Source: an uncultured Methanosarcinales archaeon
GTDB taxonomy: Archaea; Nanobdellota; Nanobdellia; Woesearchaeales; DSVV01
Direction: 5' to 3'
Assembly: GCA_964452935.1 (NCBI GenBank)
Contig: CAYVNO010000001.1
Coordinates: 25,537-89,536, forward strand
Length of the DNA stretch: 64,000 bases
The translations under genes were made by a program, and so were the position numbers. This document shows positions 3,828 to 55,455 of the stretch, piece by piece; the stretch's first letter is position 1; each line of letters opens with the position of its first letter. The notes beneath the pieces are model-generated. The model saw only the letters and a program-made list of their open reading frames with translations, did not search any database and was not told the DNA's origin.

Positions 3828-4355
3828 TTGGGAAGGATATATGGGATAGCGTTTGCATTGTTTTTAGGTGTTTTATATTCAGGAGATGTTAATGCAGATA
3901 CTGTTGAGTCTGAGTCAGGTGCTAATGGAGCTAGTTCAGAATGTATTGAAGATTGTTTAACTATTTCTATTAGAAAAACTGATGATGTTAGCGGTTTAAT
4001 AGAATTATACAATGGAAATGAGTTAGTGGATAGTTATGATATCTCTCATGGGGGTGCTTTGACACCTGAAGGAGAGTATAGGGTTACTGACGTGAATCGT
4101 AGAACTGCAGGTTGGTATCAGTCGATTATTCTTACGTCTGAGGATGGTGTTGAAGTTGCTATGCATGGTTTGTACCAAGGTACATCAAGTAGTATGCCAA
4201 GAAAAGGGGAGAGAACTGCTGGTTGTGTCATGTTAGAAGAGGTTGATAATGTTATTCGTTTTCTTGATCAATATTTTGGTGGTTTAGATGAACAAGGAGA
4301 TCATCATTACACATTACCTAGACCTAATGCTGTTAGAGTGGAAATAAGTAGGTAA
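3828..4355 (+). CDS. Secreted protein with an L,D-transpeptidase (YkuD)-like catalytic motif
   Basis: There is a signal peptide, MGRIYGIAFALFLGVLYSGDVNA. The motif ...VAMHGLYQGTSSS...TAGCVML resembles the His / Ser-x-Gly-Cys catalytic signature of YkuD domains. Confidence 0.4.
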   Translation: MGRIYGIAFALFLGVLYSGDVNADTVESESGANGASSECIEDCLTISIRKTDDVSGLIELYNGNELVDSYDISHGGALTPEGEYRVTDVNRRTAGWYQSIILTSEDGVEVAMHGLYQGTSSSMPRKGERTAGCVMLEEVDNVIRFLDQYFGGLDEQGDHHYTLPRPNAVRVEISR

Positions 4356-4504: not shown

Positions 4505-5155
4505 ATGGATAAAAATAAGCTTCAAAATGCGCTTAAAAAGGTAAAAGAGAGCGCAAATAAGCGTAATTTCAAGCAAAGTTATGATTTAGTGGTTTCTTTA
4601 CAGAATTTAAACCTTAAAAAGCCAGATCAGCATGTAGATAAGTATGCTAGTCTTCATTATGGAACTGGAAAAAAGAAGAAAATATGTGCTTTTGTGGGTC
4701 CAGAATTGAAGGACGAGGCTTCAAAAGTATGTGATTTAGTTATTATACAAGATGATTTTCAAAAATATTCTGATAAAAAGAAGGCTAAGGATTTAGCAAA
4801 GGAATATGATTATTTTATAGCTCAGGCCAATATTATGGCAAAGGTTGCTACTAGTTTTGGTAAGATTTTAGGTACAAGGGGAAAGATGCCAAATCCAAAG
4901 GCAGGGTGTGTTGTACCTCCAAAGGCTAATTTGAAACCTCTTTATGATAAATTACAGAAAACAGTAAGAGTTATGGTAAAGACTCAACCACAGTTTCAGT
5001 GTATTATTGGGAATGAGGATTCAAAAGATGAAGAGTTATTAGATAATGCTGAAACAATTTTGAAGCAATTAAAAAACGCTTTACCAAATCATGAAGCAAA
5101 TATTAAAGCAGTTTATCTTAAATTATCAATGTCAAAACCAGTGAAGGTAAAATAA
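4505..5155 (+). CDS. rpl1: 50S ribosomal protein L1
   Basis: The protein MDKNKLQNALKKVKESANKRNFKQSYDLVVSLQNL...GTRGKMPNPKAG matches archaeal L1. A GGAGG SD lies at 4488-4499, which places the likely start at 4505 rather than the first in-frame ATG at 4481. Confidence 0.85.
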   Translation: MDKNKLQNALKKVKESANKRNFKQSYDLVVSLQNLNLKKPDQHVDKYASLHYGTGKKKKICAFVGPELKDEASKVCDLVIIQDDFQKYSDKKKAKDLAKEYDYFIAQANIMAKVATSFGKILGTRGKMPNPKAGCVVPPKANLKPLYDKLQKTVRVMVKTQPQFQCIIGNEDSKDEELLDNAETILKQLKNALPNHEANIKAVYLKLSMSKPVKVK

Positions 5156-5156
5156 A

Positions 5157-6017
5157 ATGGCTCCAAAAGCAATAATTTCACCAGAAAAGAAGAAAGTTGT
5201 AAAAGAGTTTGTGAAATTACTAGAGGAATATCCTATTGTTGGGGCTGTAAATATGGAGAATCTTCCTACAAAACAACTTCAGAACATGAGAGCTCAGTTA
5301 AGGGGCACTGTTGTTATGAAGATGACAAAGAGGAGATTGATTAGGATAGCGATTGAGAGTGTTAAAGATAAGAAAAAAGGTGTTGAAGAGTTAATACCTT
5401 GTTTGAAAGGAATGCCAGCATTACTTTTTACAAAAGAAAACCCGTTTATATTATATAAAAAATTACAAAAAAATAAATCAACAGCACCTGCTAAAGCGGG
5501 TCAGACAGCACCAAAAGAGATTGTTGTTAAAGCAGGACCAACACCTTTTGCTCCAGGTCCGGTTATTGGAGAGTTAGGTGCAGCAGGAATAAAAGCAGGT
5601 ATTGATGGTGGAAAGGTAGTAATCAAAGCAGACTCAGTTGTAGCAAAAGAAGGAGATGTTATTGATGCAAAACTTGCTGGGTTATTGACTAGATTGGGTA
5701 TTGAACCAATGGAAATTGGTTTAGATATAACGGCTGTTTATGAAGATGGTTCAATATTTACTAGAGATGTTTTAGCTGTTGATGAAGAAGAATATGTAAA
5801 CAATGTTTCACAGGCAAGCAAATGGGCATTTAATTTGGCTGTGGAAGCAGGAATAATGACGACAGAAACTACAGAGTTCATGGTACAGAAAGCATTTAAG
5901 GATGCAAAGAGTTTAGCAGGAGAAGCAAATATTTTATGCAGTGCGACTGTCAATGATGTTTTGGCAAAAGCAAATGCGCAAGCAGCTTCATTAAAGAGTG
6001 AGGCGAAGTTAGATTAA
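5157..6017 (+). CDS. rpl10: 50S ribosomal protein L10 (acidic ribosomal protein P0)
   Basis: MAPKAIISPEKKKVVKEFVKLLEEYPIVGAVNMENLPTKQLQNMRAQLRG is a typical archaeal P0 N-terminus. The gene lies 2 nt after the L1 stop. Confidence 0.85.
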   Translation: MAPKAIISPEKKKVVKEFVKLLEEYPIVGAVNMENLPTKQLQNMRAQLRGTVVMKMTKRRLIRIAIESVKDKKKGVEELIPCLKGMPALLFTKENPFILYKKLQKNKSTAPAKAGQTAPKEIVVKAGPTPFAPGPVIGELGAAGIKAGIDGGKVVIKADSVVAKEGDVIDAKLAGLLTRLGIEPMEIGLDITAVYEDGSIFTRDVLAVDEEEYVNNVSQASKWAFNLAVEAGIMTTETTEFMVQKAFKDAKSLAGEANILCSATVNDVLAKANAQAASLKSEAKLD

Positions 6018-49756: not shown

Positions 49757-49771
49757 GTGATTACTTTCTGT

Positions 49772-50686
49772 ATGAAACGGAAACTAATCAAACAGGGTGG
49801 TGGTGGGGTCACATTCTATGTGCCAAAGAAATGGGTTGATAAACAAGGCTTGAAACCTGGTGATGAGATTGATGTAATTGAGGAAGATGATAAATTAATT
49901 GTTCTAAATGAAGCGATGACTCAGAATAAGACTGTTGAGATTGATATTAAGGGTATGGATCATACAGCTCTTTTGAAAACAGTTATCTCTTATTATGAGA
50001 TGGGTTATTCTGAGATTACTATTATTTCAGATAATGGAATGGTTTATATTCCAACTTTATTAAAAGAAAAGAAGATAACAGTAAAAGAAGAGGTTGAAAG
50101 ATTAGTAAATAGGCTTATTGGTTTTGAGTTGATTAGTTTTGAGTCAAATAAATATGTTTTGAAAGATATTGCTATGACTTCTCCTACTGAGTTTGATAAT
50201 GTTCTAAGGAGAATCTTTTATTTATTATTAGAATTTCAAAATTATGTAAAAGAGACAGTTGATAATAAGAATAAAGTCAAAGATTATAATGAACATCATG
50301 ATAGTATTGCTAAGTTTATTAGTTTTTGTATTAGGTTATTGAATTTAAGTATGGATAAAACTAATGTTGAGAAGAATAATTTACATACAATACTAACATT
50401 GTTGGATAAGTATACTGATGCGTTAAGATGGCTATTATACGATTACACTGCTAGTGGAATAAAAGATAAAAAATCAATCTTTGCTATAATGGATCATTTT
50501 AGAATGTATTATAATTTATTTTATAATTATGATATAAAATTAATAAATGAGTTAGATAGAGAAAGAATTAAGTTAAGAAAAACATTGAAATCAGATGAAG
50601 CAGTTATTCACTTTTCTTCTGTTTTAGAATATATCATGGCAATGATTAGACCAACTATTTGTTTAGTTGAGAGTTCCAAGTCTTAA
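49772..50686 (+). CDS. Transcriptional regulator with an N-terminal AbrB/SpoVT swapped-hairpin domain and a PhoU-like helical C-domain
   Basis: MKRKLIKQGGGGVTFYVPKKWVDKQGLKPGDEIDVIEEDDKLIVL is a typical AbrB/MazE-type domain. The C-terminal ~220 aa are helical and PhoU-like. Confidence 0.5.
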   Translation: MKRKLIKQGGGGVTFYVPKKWVDKQGLKPGDEIDVIEEDDKLIVLNEAMTQNKTVEIDIKGMDHTALLKTVISYYEMGYSEITIISDNGMVYIPTLLKEKKITVKEEVERLVNRLIGFELISFESNKYVLKDIAMTSPTEFDNVLRRIFYLLLEFQNYVKETVDNKNKVKDYNEHHDSIAKFISFCIRLLNLSMDKTNVEKNNLHTILTLLDKYTDALRWLLYDYTASGIKDKKSIFAIMDHFRMYYNLFYNYDIKLINELDRERIKLRKTLKSDEAVIHFSSVLEYIMAMIRPTICLVESSKS

Positions 50687-52852
50687 TCCTCTGTCAACTC
50701 TATGTTTTAGTGTATATATTTGTTGTAACATTCTATCCATTTGTGTTGGGTTTTCTAGATTTCTTCTGTGCATAACTGAAACGTATTTTGTTGATGCATT
50801 AACCATTCCTGAATCTGCCCATTGAAACATTTCTCTGTGTTTTTCTCTGTCTGTTCTGAAATTGTTATCATGTTCTGATCTCATTGAAACATATACATCG
50901 ACATATTTTCTAACTTGGTCTTTTGTTAGGTTGAAATCTGATTCAGATAGGAACCATGTTACTTCTTCTATCTCTTTCCCCCATGAAATTAATCCATAAT
51001 CAACAATATTTCCTTTAACAATATTTCCTTTTTCTCCTGTTCTTATTGATCCTGGTTTCCAATCTCCGTGTATAATACTTAATCTTCCTTCGATTGCATA
51101 TTGTTGGAATGTTTCATTTGCTCTTTCTATATCTCCGACAAGATATGAACCGATTTCTGATTTAATTACACTATGCACTTTACTTGATGAACTTGTTGGT
51201 ATAACAACTGCTTCATAATGTGGTGTGTCTCCTCTGAGATGTCTAGATGTTCCTAAAACTGTTTCTTTATCTTTTAGTGCTGCTTTTGTTGCGTTTTTAT
51301 GGAATAAGCCCATTAAAAATAGGTTGTGTTTTATGTACCTGTCAATATTAAATGTTCCGTTGGGATTGAATGGGATATAACCTGTTTTTGCATATCCTGA
51401 TGTTTGGTTTGCTACATTGCTAAGTACAAGTAATGAGCTGTTATTTAGTTCTATTAATTCTTTTAATGATGGCATAAACTCTTCAAATTCTCCAAGATCC
51501 CATTTGTAGGCTGTTTGTGCTTCTAGTTTGTTTAATTCAATTGCTGCTTGTTTTGCGACGAGTTCCGGAGATGATAAAACAAGTCCTGAGTTGTTTCCTG
51601 TTGCTATTGGGAAATATGTATCCATCTCAACAATTGCGTCAATGTGTCCTTCTTCTGTTTCTGGGAATATTTCACTTATTCTTCTACGAGCAGATTCTAG
51701 TATTGCTGTTTTGTTTGCTCTTCTAACAACAGGTTCCATATTGCTTAAGATTGGTTTGTAATTGAACTCTTCTCTTTTCATCATTTCAAATTCAGAGTTC
51801 ATTAACTGGTCTATGAACCAGCCATAATATACTAATCTCATAAACTCTTTATTTGATTCATCTGTTCTTCTTGATTCTTCTCCAACATCTTCATCTCCCT
51901 CTTTTATTGCTGCAAATATGTCTTTTCCTAATTCAATTAGTTCATAGTCAGTTAGATCATGTTCTTTTAATAGTCTTAGGATTAATGGAGAATTTTCAGT
52001 TGCGTTTTGAACATCTTCTATTTCAAAAGGTAGGTCTCTTGGCATGTCTTCTGGCTCAATGTATGCTTCTCCATATCCTCTGTCGAAGTCAAATTGGTTT
52101 AGGTGGTCTGCTGTTAATTTTTCTTTAATTTCTTTAGCAATTCTTTCATATGCACCTTGGAATAATGTATCGTGAAGTCTCAATAATCTTGCTGGCATTC
52201 CTTGGTATGCTTCTCCATATACTTTGTGATCTTCTTTTCCTGTTTCTAGATAGTCAACAACTCTATTTACTAGTTTTACTCTGTCATTATTTCTTTCTAT
52301 TGTTCCTCCTTCTATACCTTGTTCTACTGCATTTCTTATTTCAGATAATTCTCTTTCCATAATTATGTCAAAACATTTTCTTCCTATGCTGTCAGATTTA
52401 TTACAGTCTTTATGTCTTGGGTCGTTGCTTAATAAAGGGTATGTCCATATACTTTCAGTACAGAAGGGATCTATTCTCATGCTTATTGCATCAATTGTTC
52501 TTATTAGTCTTCCACAGATGGTTTCTAGATCTTTTTCTGTTTCTCCTGTTAGTTGTTCAGCTAAAGGAGTACATCCACAATCTGTTGAATCATATTCGGA
52601 ATAATTTCTTGGGTGGTTGTGGTAATCTGCTCCTCCTTTATTTTTAATTCCAAATAATTCTAATCCATATAACTCACATATTTTATCATATTCAAATGCT
52701 ATTCTGTCGGCTATCTGAGTTTGTTGGTTTGCATCAGGTTCTGAGAAGATTCCGTGTCTATGTAAATGATCCTGTCTAAAATAATTAGTAATTCTATCTC
52801 CTAAGTCATCCATTAAATCTACTAATTCTTCTGCGCTTGGTTGATTACTCAT
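50663..52852 (-). CDS. Large (729 aa) protein with a C-terminal aminoglycoside-phosphotransferase/protein-kinase-like (APH) domain
   Basis: LSIIHGDWKPGSI is the Brenner-type HGDxxxxN catalytic loop, and IVDYG is a DFG-equivalent. The N-terminal ~450 aa are unassigned, acidic and Cys-containing. Confidence 0.5.
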   Translation of the reverse strand: MSNQPSAEELVDLMDDLGDRITNYFRQDHLHRHGIFSEPDANQQTQIADRIAFEYDKICELYGLELFGIKNKGGADYHNHPRNYSEYDSTDCGCTPLAEQLTGETEKDLETICGRLIRTIDAISMRIDPFCTESIWTYPLLSNDPRHKDCNKSDSIGRKCFDIIMERELSEIRNAVEQGIEGGTIERNNDRVKLVNRVVDYLETGKEDHKVYGEAYQGMPARLLRLHDTLFQGAYERIAKEIKEKLTADHLNQFDFDRGYGEAYIEPEDMPRDLPFEIEDVQNATENSPLILRLLKEHDLTDYELIELGKDIFAAIKEGDEDVGEESRRTDESNKEFMRLVYYGWFIDQLMNSEFEMMKREEFNYKPILSNMEPVVRRANKTAILESARRRISEIFPETEEGHIDAIVEMDTYFPIATGNNSGLVLSSPELVAKQAAIELNKLEAQTAYKWDLGEFEEFMPSLKELIELNNSSLLVLSNVANQTSGYAKTGYIPFNPNGTFNIDRYIKHNLFLMGLFHKNATKAALKDKETVLGTSRHLRGDTPHYEAVVIPTSSSSKVHSVIKSEIGSYLVGDIERANETFQQYAIEGRLSIIHGDWKPGSIRTGEKGNIVKGNIVDYGLISWGKEIEEVTWFLSESDFNLTKDQVRKYVDVYVSMRSEHDNNFRTDREKHREMFQWADSGMVNASTKYVSVMHRRNLENPTQMDRMLQQIYTLKHRVDRGLRLGTLN

Positions 52853-52986
52853 TCTTTTTCCTCGAATAGTTTTTTTAATGCAAACTCAATTGCGTGTGAT
52901 TTGTTTCTGAAAACACCGGAACGCATGCTATCTTGAATCTTTACAACAATTTCTTCGTCCACTGTTATGCTTAGTTTGTGTTTCAT
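52849..52986 (-). CDS. Ribbon-helix-helix (CopG/Arc-like) small DNA-binding protein, 45 aa
   Basis: This ORF was not in the track. MKHKLSITVDEEIVVKIQDSMRSGVFRNKSHAIEFALKKLFEEKE has a beta-strand followed by two helices. It overlaps both neighbours by ATGA. It is a paralog of the ORF at 55318-55455. Confidence 0.6.
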   Translation of the reverse strand: MKHKLSITVDEEIVVKIQDSMRSGVFRNKSHAIEFALKKLFEEKE

Positions 52987-53909
52987 CTTGGTTGATTCTC
53001 CCTGTAATTATCTCTTTCAGCTCTTGCTTTCATTTGTGGTGTTTGTAATTGTATTTCTAGATTGGAATAATCTTCTGAGGATTTTTTAATTATTATGCCT
53101 TGGAATCCATTCGGTTTTGGGAATGTTATTAAGTCACGTACATCATCAACAGAATAATCATAAATACATCTCATTAAGTATAAACAATGTCCTGCTGTTT
53201 CGGCAGTTATTCTTATACCATTTATATCTCCAATATCATTTACACTTCTCAATGAAGGATTTCTTTGAATCCATGCATAAACACTTTCTGGTGTTTTTAC
53301 TCTAGTTTCTATATCTATTACTTTGTCTCTTTTATGCCTCTCTTTTAAGAATTGCCTCCATTTCTCAAGCTCTTCTGGATCAAGACTATTCTCTTCTATA
53401 TGTTTGAGAATTTCTTCATATAATTTTGGGTCTTGTTCTATAATTTCTTTTCTTGTGAGATATCTTTTCGGCTTAAACTCTTGGAATCCTAATTGTTCTA
53501 CTGTTTCTTCTAGTTCTGGCATTTCTTCGCCAATAAAAAATGCTCTTCTATTATTTAGGTAGTGAGGAATATATAGTTCTAGGTCGTGCTGTTGTGTACC
53601 TGTAAATCGTGGTCTTCCTTCTTCAAAATCAACATAGTAGAACATTGTTCTATTGTCTTCTCCTTGTTCTACTATGTATCCCACTCCAGTATGATTAACC
53701 TTTTTTACACGGTACATTGTTAGGTGATGTCCTACTGTACCAATGTTTAGTGCGACAACTTTTCCTTGTAATGAAGATTGAATTCCTTCATATTTTTCTA
53801 CTCTTCTAAATCCTAGTTCATGGAGGGCTCTACGACTGTTTCTAATTCTTTGTTTAACACTGTCACTCATTGCTCTTCTCATTATTTTATTGTGTAGTGG
53901 TTCTGTCAT
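52983..53909 (-). CDS. RelA/SpoT-like (RSH synthetase-fold) nucleotidyltransferase, small-alarmone-synthetase-like
   Basis: C-terminal SVNDIGDINGIRITAETAGHCLYLMRCIYDY...DLITFPKPNGFQGIIIKK...LEIQLQTPQM aligns with the RelP/RelQ synthetase core (D..G.R....; PK.NGYQSLH; VEIQIRT). Consensus Y (to F) and R (to Q) positions are substituted. Confidence 0.6.
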   Translation of the reverse strand: MTEPLHNKIMRRAMSDSVKQRIRNSRRALHELGFRRVEKYEGIQSSLQGKVVALNIGTVGHHLTMYRVKKVNHTGVGYIVEQGEDNRTMFYYVDFEEGRPRFTGTQQHDLELYIPHYLNNRRAFFIGEEMPELEETVEQLGFQEFKPKRYLTRKEIIEQDPKLYEEILKHIEENSLDPEELEKWRQFLKERHKRDKVIDIETRVKTPESVYAWIQRNPSLRSVNDIGDINGIRITAETAGHCLYLMRCIYDYSVDDVRDLITFPKPNGFQGIIIKKSSEDYSNLEIQLQTPQMKARAERDNYRENQPR

Positions 53910-53984
53910 TTATCCTATTCTATACTACTCATATATAAATGTTTCTATTTGTTACTATTGATTGGTAGTTATATTGTTCTTTAT

Positions 53985-54022
53985 TACCCTTTACATTTGA
54001 AAAATCTGATTGTAAAGGGTAA
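53985..54022 (+). repeat. Palindromic 38-bp element upstream of the Fic gene
   Basis: The sequence is taccctttaca-tttgaaaaatctgat-tgtaaagggtaa. Confidence 0.6.
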
Positions 54023-54055
54023 GTTTTATATATGAGTTAGGGCTATCAATTCATT

Positions 54056-55057
54056 ATGGTATATATTTACAAGAAAACAATACATGGAAAGAACTATTAT
54101 TATCTTAGGGTATCTAAGAGGGTTAATGGTAAATTAGTGGTTAAAGATGTTGCTTATTTGGGTAATGATATATCTAAGATTGAAAGTAAGTTAAATAATT
54201 TAGTGGAGTATAAGGATGAGATAAGAAAAGGTCATAGAATCATAAAGAAATTTATACAATCAAATTATTTCTTACAGAAAGTAAAAAAATTGAAATTAAA
54301 GAATATTAATTATTTAGATAAAGGAATGTTAGAACAGGTTGAGGCTATAAAATTACATTATAAAAATAATTTTTTAAAATTAGATGAATTAACAAAGAAA
54401 GAGGTCTATAAACATTTTTTAATTGATTTTGCTTTTAATACAACCTCCATAGAAGGTAATACAATCACTCTAGATGAAGCAAATAAACTTTTGAATGAAG
54501 ATATTTTACCAAAAAATAAAACTCTTAGAGAAGTTTATGATTTGCAGAATACTGAAAACACTTTTTTATGGCTTTTAGACGACAAACCTTTGTTTAATGA
54601 AATGTTAATCACTGATATTCATGATAGATTGCTAGAGAAAATTGATGTAAGAAAAGGCTATAGGACTCAAGATATTAAAGTTTTCAAGTCAAAATTTGAG
54701 GCTTCTCCTGTTAAATACTTAAAGATTGATATGAGGGTTTTAATGAAGTGGTTTAAAGATAATAAAAAGTTACATCCTCTTGTTTTAGTTGGATTATTGC
54801 ATCATAAGTTAGAGAAGATACATCCGTTTGCAGATGGAAACGGAAGAACAGGGAGAATGTTGATGAATTATATTTTAATGAAAATGGGTTTTCCTCCTTT
54901 AATTATATCTAAAAAAAGAAGATCAGATTATTTGGCTGCTTTAAGGAATGCAGATAATTGTGATTTAAATGATAATGATTCTAGTTATTATAAAAAGTTG
55001 ATAACTTATTTAGCTGAGGAGATGGTTTCTTCTTATTGGTCTAATTTTAATGTTTAA
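54056..55057 (+). CDS. fic: Fic/Doc family protein (putative AMPylase)
   Basis: HPFADGNGRTGR matches the canonical Fic motif HPFx[DE]GNGRxxR. Confidence 0.9.
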   Translation: MVYIYKKTIHGKNYYYLRVSKRVNGKLVVKDVAYLGNDISKIESKLNNLVEYKDEIRKGHRIIKKFIQSNYFLQKVKKLKLKNINYLDKGMLEQVEAIKLHYKNNFLKLDELTKKEVYKHFLIDFAFNTTSIEGNTITLDEANKLLNEDILPKNKTLREVYDLQNTENTFLWLLDDKPLFNEMLITDIHDRLLEKIDVRKGYRTQDIKVFKSKFEASPVKYLKIDMRVLMKWFKDNKKLHPLVLVGLLHHKLEKIHPFADGNGRTGRMLMNYILMKMGFPPLIISKKRRSDYLAALRNADNCDLNDNDSSYYKKLITYLAEEMVSSYWSNFNV

Positions 55058-55059
55058 TT

Positions 55060-55097
55060 TACCCTTTACAATTGAAAAATGTGAATGTAAAGGGTAA
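55060..55097 (+). repeat. Second copy of the palindromic 38-bp element, immediately downstream of the Fic stop
   Basis: The sequence taccctttaca-attgaaaaatgtgaa-tgtaaagggtaa is about 90% identical to 53985-54022. Confidence 0.6.
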
Positions 55098-55317
55098 ATA
55101 TGATTCTATGTGTTTTTCTTCTAAAAACAAAACCTTTAAATACTAGTACATACTGAGTAATGCTTAATGCATATCATTAAGATATGATATGTAATCGTAA
55201 GCAGGTTTAGAACGAGTAAGAACGCCAACAATTTCGCCAAAATTGTAGTTCAGGGCAGGGTGCGGTAGCATCCTTCCAATTTTTTTCATAGGGGGTGCAA
55301 GATAGGAGTTGTGATAG

Positions 55318-55455
55318 ATGAAAGAACGTATTACAATAACAATTGACAAGGACCTGTTAAATTGGTTAGATAGTAAAATTGAAGATAAAACTTTTGCAAA
55401 TAGAAGTCACGGGTTTGAATTCTTAATTAAGAAAAGGATGGATGGTGAAAAATGA
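55318..55455 (+). CDS. Ribbon-helix-helix small protein, 45 aa, paralog of 52849-52986
   Basis: This ORF was not in the track. The protein is MKERITITIDKDLLNWLDSKIEDKTFANRSHGFEFLIKKRMDGEK. An AGGAG SD lies upstream. Its TGA overlaps the ATG of the beta-CASP gene. Confidence 0.6.
   Translation: MKERITITIDKDLLNWLDSKIEDKTFANRSHGFEFLIKKRMDGEK

Follow-up and report, generated by a model that had tools for sequence, protein, structure and literature searches.

Why should a single fic gene, in a 64,000-nt stretch of the archaeal contig CAYVNO010000001.1 (the window), be bracketed by two nearly identical palindromes? A first, sequence-only reading of this DNA had proposed either a mobile or recombining cassette or a tight operator and terminator control of a potentially toxic AMPylase. 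The comparative analysis presented here favors a control function: the palindromes are probably operators read by the N-terminal domain of the Fic protein itself, through which Fic would repress its own promoter. Three comparative observations point in this direction, namely the linkage of the site to that domain, its fixed position at the promoter, and the co-variation of protein residues with DNA bases.

The fic locus, its promoter and its product

The features of the window on which the argument depends are the following (coordinates, strand, description and basis).

53984 to 54022, no strand: upstream palindrome, TTACCCTTTACA-TTTGAAAAATCTGAT-TGTAAAGGGTAA; from the sequence
54023 to 54032, plus strand: remnant of the transcription factor B recognition element (BRE) and TATA box (TATA at 54025-54032), G-T-TTTATATA; from the consensus of 82 loci
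54056 to 55057, plus strand: fic gene, 333 aa, class II autoinhibited Fic enzyme; Pfam PF02661
54056 to 54190, plus strand: N-terminal domain of a three-stranded beta-sheet and a helix (MVYIYKKTIHGKNYYYLRVSKRVNGKLVVKDVAYLG...), codons 1-45, putative operator reader; from conservation and the AlphaFold2 model
54440 to 54457, plus strand: inhibitory-helix motif [S/T]xxxE[G/N], here TTSIEG, codons 129-134; from the sequence and 45 homologues
54821 to 54856, plus strand: active-site motif HPFADGNGRTGR, codons 256-267; from the sequence and 45 homologues
55059 to 55097, no strand: downstream palindrome, TTACCCTTTACA-ATTGAAAAATGTGAA-TGTAAAGGGTAA; from the sequence

The sequence and a pattern search bore out the earlier description of two near-identical palindromes bracketing fic, including their coordinates. 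The arms were indeed perfect inverted repeats, the same in both copies, and measured 12 nt (13 nt in copy 2), one nucleotide more than the 11 nt first counted. Their 15-nt centres differed at three positions, so that the two copies were identical at 36 of 39 nucleotides. The upstream palindrome ended 33 nt before the fic ATG, and the downstream 12-nt arm began 1 nt past the TAA stop codon (2 nt past it for the arm of 11 nt). In this window of ~32% G+C, the pattern TTACCCTTTACA-N15-TGTAAAGGGTAA, with up to three mismatches allowed, was found at these two sites only in 64 kb and never in 100 shuffles, and the single 11-mer arm occurred at four places only, all of them within the two palindromes. 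Rfam searches at gathering and E-value thresholds assigned no family to the palindromes or the DNA around them, and ARAGORN found no tRNA in the window. The same sequence was also found in a JGI metagenome contig and in an ENA contig, and the housekeeping proteins of the window resembled those of Woesearchaeota/Nanoarchaeota (DPANN), with identities of 59% at most.

The upstream copy is placed at what appears to be the fic promoter. Across 82 loci, the GGGTA that closes the palindrome was followed by the consensus A-[G/A]-A-TTTAWAWA, which reads as a textbook archaeal BRE/TATA element, and the distance from arm to ATG was confined to 31-35 nt. The start codon was ATG in all 89 genes, and a Shine-Dalgarno-like motif was found in none of the 82 loci. 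The center of the TATA box lay about 26-27 nt ahead of the A of the fic ATG; from a center ~26 nt upstream, the usual geometry of archaeal promoters predicts that transcription starts at the ATG and, therefore, that the fic mRNA is leaderless. The promoter-proximal arm spanned about -34 to -45, overlapping the BRE position directly upstream of the TATA box. The earlier proposal of a dimeric protein-binding site exerting tight operator control over a potentially toxic AMPylase gained support from this arrangement, in which a conserved upstream copy abuts the fic BRE/TATA. A scan for sigma-70 promoters was uninformative for an archaeon.

The fic product matched Pfam PF02661 with E=3.6e-20 and 73 bits against a cutoff of 24, and its AlphaFold2 model reached a predicted local distance difference test score (pLDDT) of 90.7. 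Both features of class II Fic proteins were present, the active site HPFx[D/E]GN[G/K]R and an inhibitory motif that precedes the Fic core on the same polypeptide. Among 45 homologues, S131, E133, G134 and N135 of the inhibitory region were invariant, as were H256, P257, F258, G261, N262, G263, R264, G266 and R267 of the active site, and the inhibitory motif aligned with the inhibitory TVAIEG of FICD. The intact motifs suggest potential AMP-transferase activity (AMPylation/deAMPylation) and toxicity when the enzyme is de-inhibited. The closest solved relatives of residues 84-304 were metazoan FICD/HYPE and Caenorhabditis elegans Fic-1 (E=2e-25, with FICD as the top Foldseek match). Bacterial Fic structures were more distant from the archaeal protein, with E=1e-16 or worse versus ~1e-25 for FICD/Fic-1, and this closeness to FICD may bear on the origin of the eukaryotic enzyme.

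The N-terminal extension, which replaces the tetratricopeptide repeat (TPR) region of FICD, was near-invariant in the same homologues, with M1, Y3, Y5, K7, Y14, Y16, L17, S20, D31, A33, Y34, L35 and G36 conserved in all of them. It was rich in Lys/Arg and Tyr, and AlphaFold2 modelled it with pLDDT >90 as beta-strands at residues 2-9, 12-23 and 26-36 followed by helices, R22 and V29 of the window Fic being located on the beta2-beta3 hairpin. Neither Pfam nor the AlphaFold2 model revealed a C-terminal helix-turn-helix (HTH), and the protein ends right after the Fic core. Within the window, fic was the only open reading frame (ORF) with this N-terminal domain, and the only two palindromes were those that flank it.

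Linkage of the site to the N-terminal domain

The earlier reading would have been undermined by a generic terminator or promoter motif, spread genome-wide and unrelated to fic. To the contrary, the element was found to be strictly linked to fic. A scan for ACCCTTTACA-N13-17-TGTAAAGGGT over one genome per species (596 Gb) returned 48 loci, 19 of which were bacterial matches that were taken as chance terminators, having longer stems followed by T-runs and no fic. The other 29 carried the archaeal-type element and belonged to Woese-, Nano-, Pace- and Iainarchaeota bins, to a few Methanosarcinales bins and to the contig of locus L041 (L numbers denote individual loci), with one such locus per genome. 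In 25 of them the element abutted a full-length homologue of the window Fic (47-66% identity); of the remaining four, one lay beside a distant Fic and three were solo palindromes (L003, L010 and L035). The pattern had no match in 2.9 million viral contigs, hence no link to known viruses. Some DPANN-typical fic and palindrome loci were placed in unexpected bins, three of them labelled Methanosarcinales (L029, L042 and L049) and one, L041, being a 3.8-kb contig of a Bacteroidetes bin; mis-binning or transfer to DPANN hosts could account for them.

In an unbiased sample of 80 metagenome loci picked by Fic protein similarity alone, in which a site was accepted with up to 4 mismatches over the 22 arm positions, an upstream palindrome ending 31-35 nt before the ATG was present in 72 of the 76 loci with enough upstream DNA, and the few apparent exceptions held recognisable variants, such as TTACCCCT...AGGGGTAA in L058 and L066. 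A downstream copy was present in 27 of 78 loci, mostly 0-3 nt past the stop codon. Over 714 kb of archaeal loci (~110 loci, mostly DPANN), the core TACCC-N24-32-GGGTA occurred 145 times against 2.15 expected: 97 sites were in the operator position, 28 just past the stop codon, 17 displaced or in tandem beside fic and 3 solo, and none was found anywhere else in this DNA. The operator was kept almost base for base across several DPANN lineages. Tandem arrays of 2-4 palindromes were observed upstream of fic in L068 (3029-3215), L101 (271-350) and L044 (2892-2967), in which the arm variants differed between copies and matched within each copy, with four different ones in L068; they may serve as operators that act cooperatively, or be left over from the turnover of cassettes.

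Genes that carry the N-terminal domain on a different protein allowed the site to be assigned to a part of Fic. A profile of residues 1-52 searched against 1.84 billion proteins retrieved 188 representatives only, whose architectures included two Fic types, MntA-like nucleotidyltransferases, class II tRNA synthetases similar to glycyl-tRNA synthetase (GlyRS), the alpha subunit of phenylalanyl-tRNA synthetase (PheRS-alpha) and unknown C-termini. Half-sites preceded three non-Fic genes with the domain. The MntA-like protein P0275, encoded beside a HepT gene, was 60% identical to the window Fic over residues 1-42 (E=1e-14), and its gene was preceded by direct repeats TGTAAAGGGTAA-N9-TGTAAAGGGTAA abutting a TATA box and a leaderless ATG; since these half-sites are direct repeats, a hairpin is not required. 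In the genes of P0257 and P0300, with unrelated C-termini, TTACCCTTTA...AAGGGTAA palindromes abutted the TATA boxes. Because non-Fic genes bearing the domain keep the half-sites, and no neighboring gene is conserved across loci, the site follows the N-terminal domain, and not the Fic catalytic domain or the neighboring genes.

Divergent versions of the domain were accompanied by different repeats, all initiated by TGTRR and placed at or around the TATA box: three copies of TGTAGACACC(CAT) ahead of the nucleotidyltransferase (MNT) gene of L016, TGTAGTTGTTAATAA and TGTAGTTATTAACAA flanking the TATA box of the GlyRS gene of L131, CTGTAGTTACTAA at that of L137, three copies of TGTGGTAATTAACT at the PheRS-alpha gene of L093, and, in L086, CTACA...TGTAG enclosing the TATA box of the second type of Fic. 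The synthetase repeats deserve mention on their own, as the TATA boxes of the housekeeping GlyRS-like and PheRS-alpha genes of DPANN archaea were flanked by a repeat of 13-15 nt (TGTAGTTnTTAA... or TGTGGTAATTAACT) in 2-3 copies, in regions 540-600 of L131, about 470-500 of L137 and 2077-2200 of L093 (minus-strand gene), which suggests transcriptional self-regulation of these enzymes. That MntA antitoxins and class II tRNA synthetases also carry the domain, each with promoter repeats of its own, may point to a plug-in module of autoregulation that is general in reduced genomes with few classical regulators.

The co-variation of Fic residues with arm bases also connects the domain to the DNA. 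With the arm numbered T1A2C3C4C5T6T7T8A9C10A11, T1 and C3-C5 were invariant in both arms of 82 unique loci, A2 differed in one arm, and variation was otherwise limited to positions 6-7 and 9-11. C10 was present in both arms of 61 of the 65 loci with Arg22 and in none of the 17 with Lys, Asn or Thr at this residue (Fisher p=3.7e-14), a concordance of 78 of 82 loci. Similarly, C7 in the proximal arm was observed in 13 of 15 loci with Ala29 or Ser29 versus 3 of 67 with other residues (p=1.2e-10). On a tree built from residues 60-333 only, the minimum number of changes was 14 for the R22 trait, 18 for the C10 trait and 18 for the joint trait, and 8, 11 and 12, respectively, for residue 29, base 7 and both together. 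Since 18 changes suffice for the joint trait, residue and base have changed along the same branches. An arginine that is paired with a G:C base pair and lost along with it is the classic signature of direct readout. The mapping may be colinear, the invariant base of the hairpin corresponding to the outer TACCC and its variable tip to the variable inner bases. Specificity swaps are predicted as well: R22K or R22N would shift recognition from TACCCTTTACA to TACCCTTTA[A/T][A/T], and V29A or V29S would favor C at position 7.

Autorepression weighed against other readings

Taken as a mechanism, each half-site would be read base-specifically by the beta-hairpin domain of ~45 residues, and a Fic dimer would set its two N-terminal domains on the two inverted arms. 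Given that the site overlaps the BRE upstream of the TATA box, bound Fic should block the recruitment of transcription factor B and TATA-binding protein (TFB/TBP) and so repress its own transcription. Repression would keep an autoinhibited but potentially toxic AMP-transferase scarce, with the logic of a toxin-antitoxin module reduced to one polypeptide, in which DNA-binding domain, inhibitory helix and toxin share a chain. The copy past the stop codon would most likely serve as an auxiliary operator: Fic bound there could cooperate in repression through a loop of ~1.08 kb, or could form a roadblock that insulates the gene. What we infer beyond the comparative results themselves is that Fic binds as a dimer, that it represses and does not activate, that the transcript is leaderless, and what the downstream copy does. 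If correct, the locus would offer a candidate new archaeal DNA-binding fold that is testable and comes with natural specificity variants, a simple archaeal promoter-operator pair for in-vitro transcription studies of unculturable organisms, and an insight into the control of FICD-like enzymes outside eukaryotes.

Several points weigh against autorepression. The comparison of the N-terminal domain with known structures by Foldseek gave nothing significant, the best E-values being 0.13 (PDB) and 0.03 (BFVD); its weak matches were nucleic-acid binders, namely PC4/Sub1, the arm domains of P4 integrases and homing endonucleases. Comparison with Pfam, NCBIfam and PDB sequence profiles returned noise only, and no significant likeness to known beta-sheet DNA-binding folds (AP2/integrase arm-type, ribbon-helix-helix (RHH) and AbrB) was detected. 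The domain is also carried by class II aminoacyl-tRNA synthetases, where RNA binding is possible, and an archaeal site immediately upstream of the BRE can activate instead of repress. The co-variation could in principle reflect co-inheritance, against which the repeated coincident changes speak. Finally, autorepression does not by itself explain a second site past the stop codon that is kept in only about one third of the loci, nor does it explain the sharp, cassette-like boundaries of homology.

The downstream copy was examined on its own terms. It was common (27 loci) in the clade of the window Fic, with C-terminus ...WNNFN[VI] or ...WNNFL[IV], and nearly absent from the other clade (...YWxIFL). 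Its distribution was non-monophyletic and patchy within the one clade, so that inheritance from a single origin was not a full explanation. The downstream arms were as well kept as the upstream ones; in 25 of 27 loci, upstream and downstream spacers were of equal length; and loop similarity between upstream and downstream copies was 0.63 within loci versus 0.45 between loci (permutation p ~2e-4). The downstream copies of L051, L094, L073 and L108 obeyed the residue-22 rule, and the TATA-like sequence that follows the downstream copy in some loci was not conserved and decays. We conclude that the downstream copy is, by all appearances, a genuine second Fic site, kept by selection and homogenised with the upstream copy, and not a promoter element, for which an auxiliary operator (looping or cooperativity) or a roadblock are the most economical ideas. 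A function as the operator of the next gene, or as a shield against convergent transcription, was rejected, as no association with the strand or distance of the neighbor was found (next-gene strand 11 plus and 9 minus with the downstream copy, versus 26 plus and 16 minus without it).

Mobility is the part of the earlier proposal that bears directly on those boundaries. In eight pairs of loci, fic was 82-89% identical at the nucleotide level between flanks without similarity over 2 kb on each side (blastn with word 11, tblastx at 1e-5); one pair with 97.6% identity shared flanks at 92%. Between units with unrelated flanks, homology set in at the left edge of the upstream palindrome and ended at the right edge of the downstream palindrome (L115/L120, L074/L085 and L036/L113) or at the stop codon (L125/L126). 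The movement or exchange of the fic unit as a discrete block therefore appears real from sequence comparison, and this much of the cassette proposal stood, together with the three solo palindromes; a dedicated recombinase was not found in association with the loci, and homologous replacement could also explain the boundaries. That the palindromes are primarily recombination sites of a mobile single-gene cassette, with an operator function secondary or absent, is in our judgment unlikely. Such a function would account for similar units in unrelated flanks with sharp boundaries, for the concerted evolution of the two copies within a locus and for the solo palindromes without fic, of which that of L003 had right-flank genes in common with L013 (fic with two copies) and that of L010 an adjacent ORF in common with L042 (fic). 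It would also accommodate palindrome-containing repeats that bracket toxin-antitoxin modules (86 nt and perfect in L082, 74 nt in L016) and the tRNA genes that abut palindromes in L108 and L035. These repeats and tRNA genes, the genes that loci with solo palindromes share with fic loci and the four tandem palindromes of L068 are further signs of recombinogenic palindromes. However, neighbor clustering revealed no integrase or transposase recurring near the loci, and the 2.9 million viral contigs held no match. The upstream copy was present in ~95% of the loci, two thirds of which have no downstream copy and nevertheless also occur in unrelated contexts (L125/L126 and L019/L041). A site that abuts the TATA box at a fixed position and co-varies with residues of Fic is a promoter element recognised by a protein, and sharp boundaries are to be expected if alleles are exchanged by ordinary homologous recombination, with the conserved palindromes or the conserved 3' end of the coding region as anchors. 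A clean pair of occupied and empty sites was not found among the loci, and a dedicated palindrome-specific recombination mechanism is retained as a minority possibility.

Integron gene cassettes (attC) and hairpin-ended elements of the IS200/IS605 type offer a further comparison. The likeness lies in a single gene between directly oriented palindromes, in unrelated contexts and with sharp boundaries, and in other toxin-antitoxin cassettes being bracketed by the same repeats. The attC sites are imperfect, 57-141 bp long, with R''-L''/L'-R' boxes and extrahelical bases, and accompany a promoterless ORF with IntI nearby. The archaeal element, in contrast, was a perfect 39 bp without extrahelical bases or R/L boxes; the gene has its own promoter between element and ATG; the upstream element belongs to the gene itself and not to the cassette before it; neither IntI nor TnpA was seen; and in most members of the family the upstream element is the only one. 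No integrase was present among the annotated neighbors or the recurrent neighbor families, which sets the locus apart from integron cassettes. Under autorepression, the second operator and the sharp boundaries raise the question of whether the repressor's own sites may help the toxin gene move between genomes.

Further observations were made around the palindromes. In L082, an 86-nt perfect direct repeat (5009-5094 and 5716-5801), comprising the fic downstream palindrome and the next 47 nt on its right side, encloses a hicB-hicA module of 621 bp, an A-B-A layout that suggests a recent insertion or duplication at the palindrome. In L016, a 74-nt direct repeat, 95% identical (3923-3996 and 4829-4902; 48 nt of left flank and the palindrome), brackets antitoxin, RelE-like and winged-HTH genes, and a distant Fic homologue (29% identity) without an upstream palindrome lies beside them. 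In one subclade (L038, L053 and L009), the left arm is immediately preceded by a conserved sequence of 17-19 nt, TCCGGCCGCAGGGATTTT, which resembles a tRNA 3' end (T-arm and acceptor) in reverse complement; ARAGORN detected no intact tRNA there, and in L038 the sequence recurs about 70 nt after the stop codon, like an attL/attR pair. tRNA genes directly abut the downstream palindrome of L108 (1665-1751, minus strand) and the solo palindrome of L035 (5896-5990, minus strand), and a tRNA-Asp(GTC) lies about 80 to 830 nt from fic in L019, L045 and L036; this proximity could be due to chance in compact genomes or to a preferred region of insertion. In the window itself, the best homologue of the neighboring beta-CASP protein was 59% identical (among 5.8 billion proteins) versus 69% for Fic, which fits horizontal exchange of fic or an unusually strong conservation of it.

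A function of the elements as RNA or single-stranded DNA hairpins, the downstream copy being a terminator or 3'-end stabiliser or the hairpin a structured target of the N-terminal domain, is considered very unlikely. Each copy folds into a stem of 12-14 bp at -15.4 to -16.8 kcal/mol (z = -3.8 to -6.0), which is what any perfect palindrome gives. Many compensatory arm changes, such as ACCCTCTACA/TGTAGAGGGT and ACCCATTACA/TGTAATGGGT, the position of the downstream copy within the expected transcript, the presence of the domain on tRNA synthetases and the single-strand binder PC4/Sub1 among the weak fold matches are all compatible with a hairpin. Nevertheless, the upstream copy lies ahead of the TATA box and so outside the fic transcript, the sequence itself is invariant and not the pairing alone (TACCC in 82 of 82 copies of both arms), about a quarter of the sites have mid-stem mismatches, and Rfam gave no match. 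The terminator role once suggested for the downstream copy found no support: its loop is of 15 nt, the stem is followed by AAATATG and not by a T-run, the terminator scan raised no flag on the palindrome, and at the MntA-type gene the half-sites are direct repeats that are unable to form a hairpin.

The remaining alternative, that the palindromes are operators of the adjacent RHH-like proteins (52849-52986, minus strand, and 55318-55455, plus strand) or of an AbrB/MazE-like protein (49757-50686), which the sequence-only reading had named as candidate regulators, can practically be dismissed, for although RHH and AbrB proteins typically repress via palindromes and two RHH-like ORFs flank the locus, these neighbors are absent from the other ~100 palindrome loci, two rounds of all-against-all ORF clustering found no neighbor gene other than Fic that recurs across loci, each RHH ORF overlaps a different downstream gene by 4 nt and is apparently translationally coupled in its own operon, ~40 nt separate the palindrome from the TATA box of the divergent RelA_SpoT operon, and the palindrome DNA co-varies with Fic residues.

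Relation to known systems and neighboring genes

For a Fic toxin that represses itself through a fused DNA-binding domain there is one experimental precedent, the bacterial CccR. This class II Fic of Yersinia pseudotuberculosis has a C-terminal HTH; its dimer represses its own promoter by binding there to AGATAATCAT-N26-ATGATAATCT, and its regulatory activity can be separated from its toxicity (PMC9755527). The archaeal locus likewise combines a class II Fic with an N-terminal inhibitory helix, a DNA-binding module (here putative) and a palindrome overlapping its own promoter. The arms are of 10 bp with a 26-bp spacer in CccR and of 11-12 bp with a 13-16 bp spacer in the archaeal site. Unlike in CccR, the putative archaeal module is an N-terminal beta-hairpin without Pfam or PDB match, and not a C-terminal HTH; the promoter is of the BRE/TATA type with an mRNA predicted to be leaderless; and a second site follows the stop codon. 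The archaeal system would work like CccR while standing outside the CccR group, its putative DNA-binding module being of another fold and at the opposite terminus, and the same self-repression logic may have arisen independently in archaea with a different, unannotated DNA-binding domain. No description of the archaeal Fic family, of its N-terminal domain or of the palindrome was found in the literature.

Resemblances to other systems are more partial. As in the type II toxin-antitoxin system phd/doc, a Fido-fold toxin is checked by an inhibitory peptide and has a palindromic operator at its own promoter, and the archaeal fic also sits among toxin-antitoxin-like genes and moves between genomes. 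It differs from phd/doc in that inhibitor, DNA-binding domain and toxin are contained in one polypeptide, without a separate antitoxin gene, and in that the operator is conserved across phyla and is not locus-specific. The inhibitory TxxxEG and HPFxDGNGR motifs are common to the archaeal Fic, FICD/HYPE and Fic-1. The activity of FICD is controlled by its dimer state; in place of the archaeal beta-hairpin domain it has a transmembrane anchor and TPR repeats, and to our knowledge it is not known to bind DNA. The lac O2, gal OI and ara O2 operators provide the analogy for a second operator copy ~1 kb off, to which the same repressor binds inside the regulated gene or at its far end; unlike those loops, looping in the archaeal locus is putative and would need a tetramer, and the second site is dispensable in two thirds of the family.

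A much wider interpretation, which we hold as speculative and rather doubtful, is that the N-terminal domain represents an unrecognised archaeal DNA-binding family with a partly readable code (Arg22 for G:C at position 10, residue 29 for position 7), serving as a plug-in self-repression module on adenylyl-transferring enzymes (Fic, MntA, GlyRS and PheRS), and that in one Fic clade the operator pair is also a recombination anchor, possibly Fic-bound, by which the operator-promoter-toxin cassette and neighboring toxin-antitoxin cassettes are exchanged among DPANN genomes.

The surroundings of fic in the window contain further units. Divergently from fic, a three-gene operon (50663-53909, minus strand) with adjacent ORFs overlapping by 4 nt encodes a RelA_SpoT protein of 308 aa (Pfam E=6.8e-12), an RHH-like protein of 45 aa and a protein of 729 aa for which Pfam gave no match; the operon resembles a toxin module built on a small alarmone synthetase. 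Downstream, at 55134-55289 (plus strand), a good TATA box CTTTAAATA at about 55136, 37 nt past the downstream palindrome, is followed by a G+C-richer stretch of ~125 nt (z=-2.7, no Rfam match), which ends in a hairpin (55257-55274) with a T7 run that the terminator scan flagged at 55257-55289; the stretch may be a small RNA or the structured leader of the RHH/beta-CASP operon. The two 45-aa RHH-like ORFs, at 52849-52986 (minus strand) and 55318-55455 (plus strand), are paralogous (MKHKLSITVDEE... and MKERITITIDKD...), and each overlaps by 4 nt the start of the next gene, which encodes the 729-aa protein in the first case and a beta-CASP/aCPSF-like nuclease in the second, the coupling of a housekeeping-type RNase to a tiny RHH protein being unusual.

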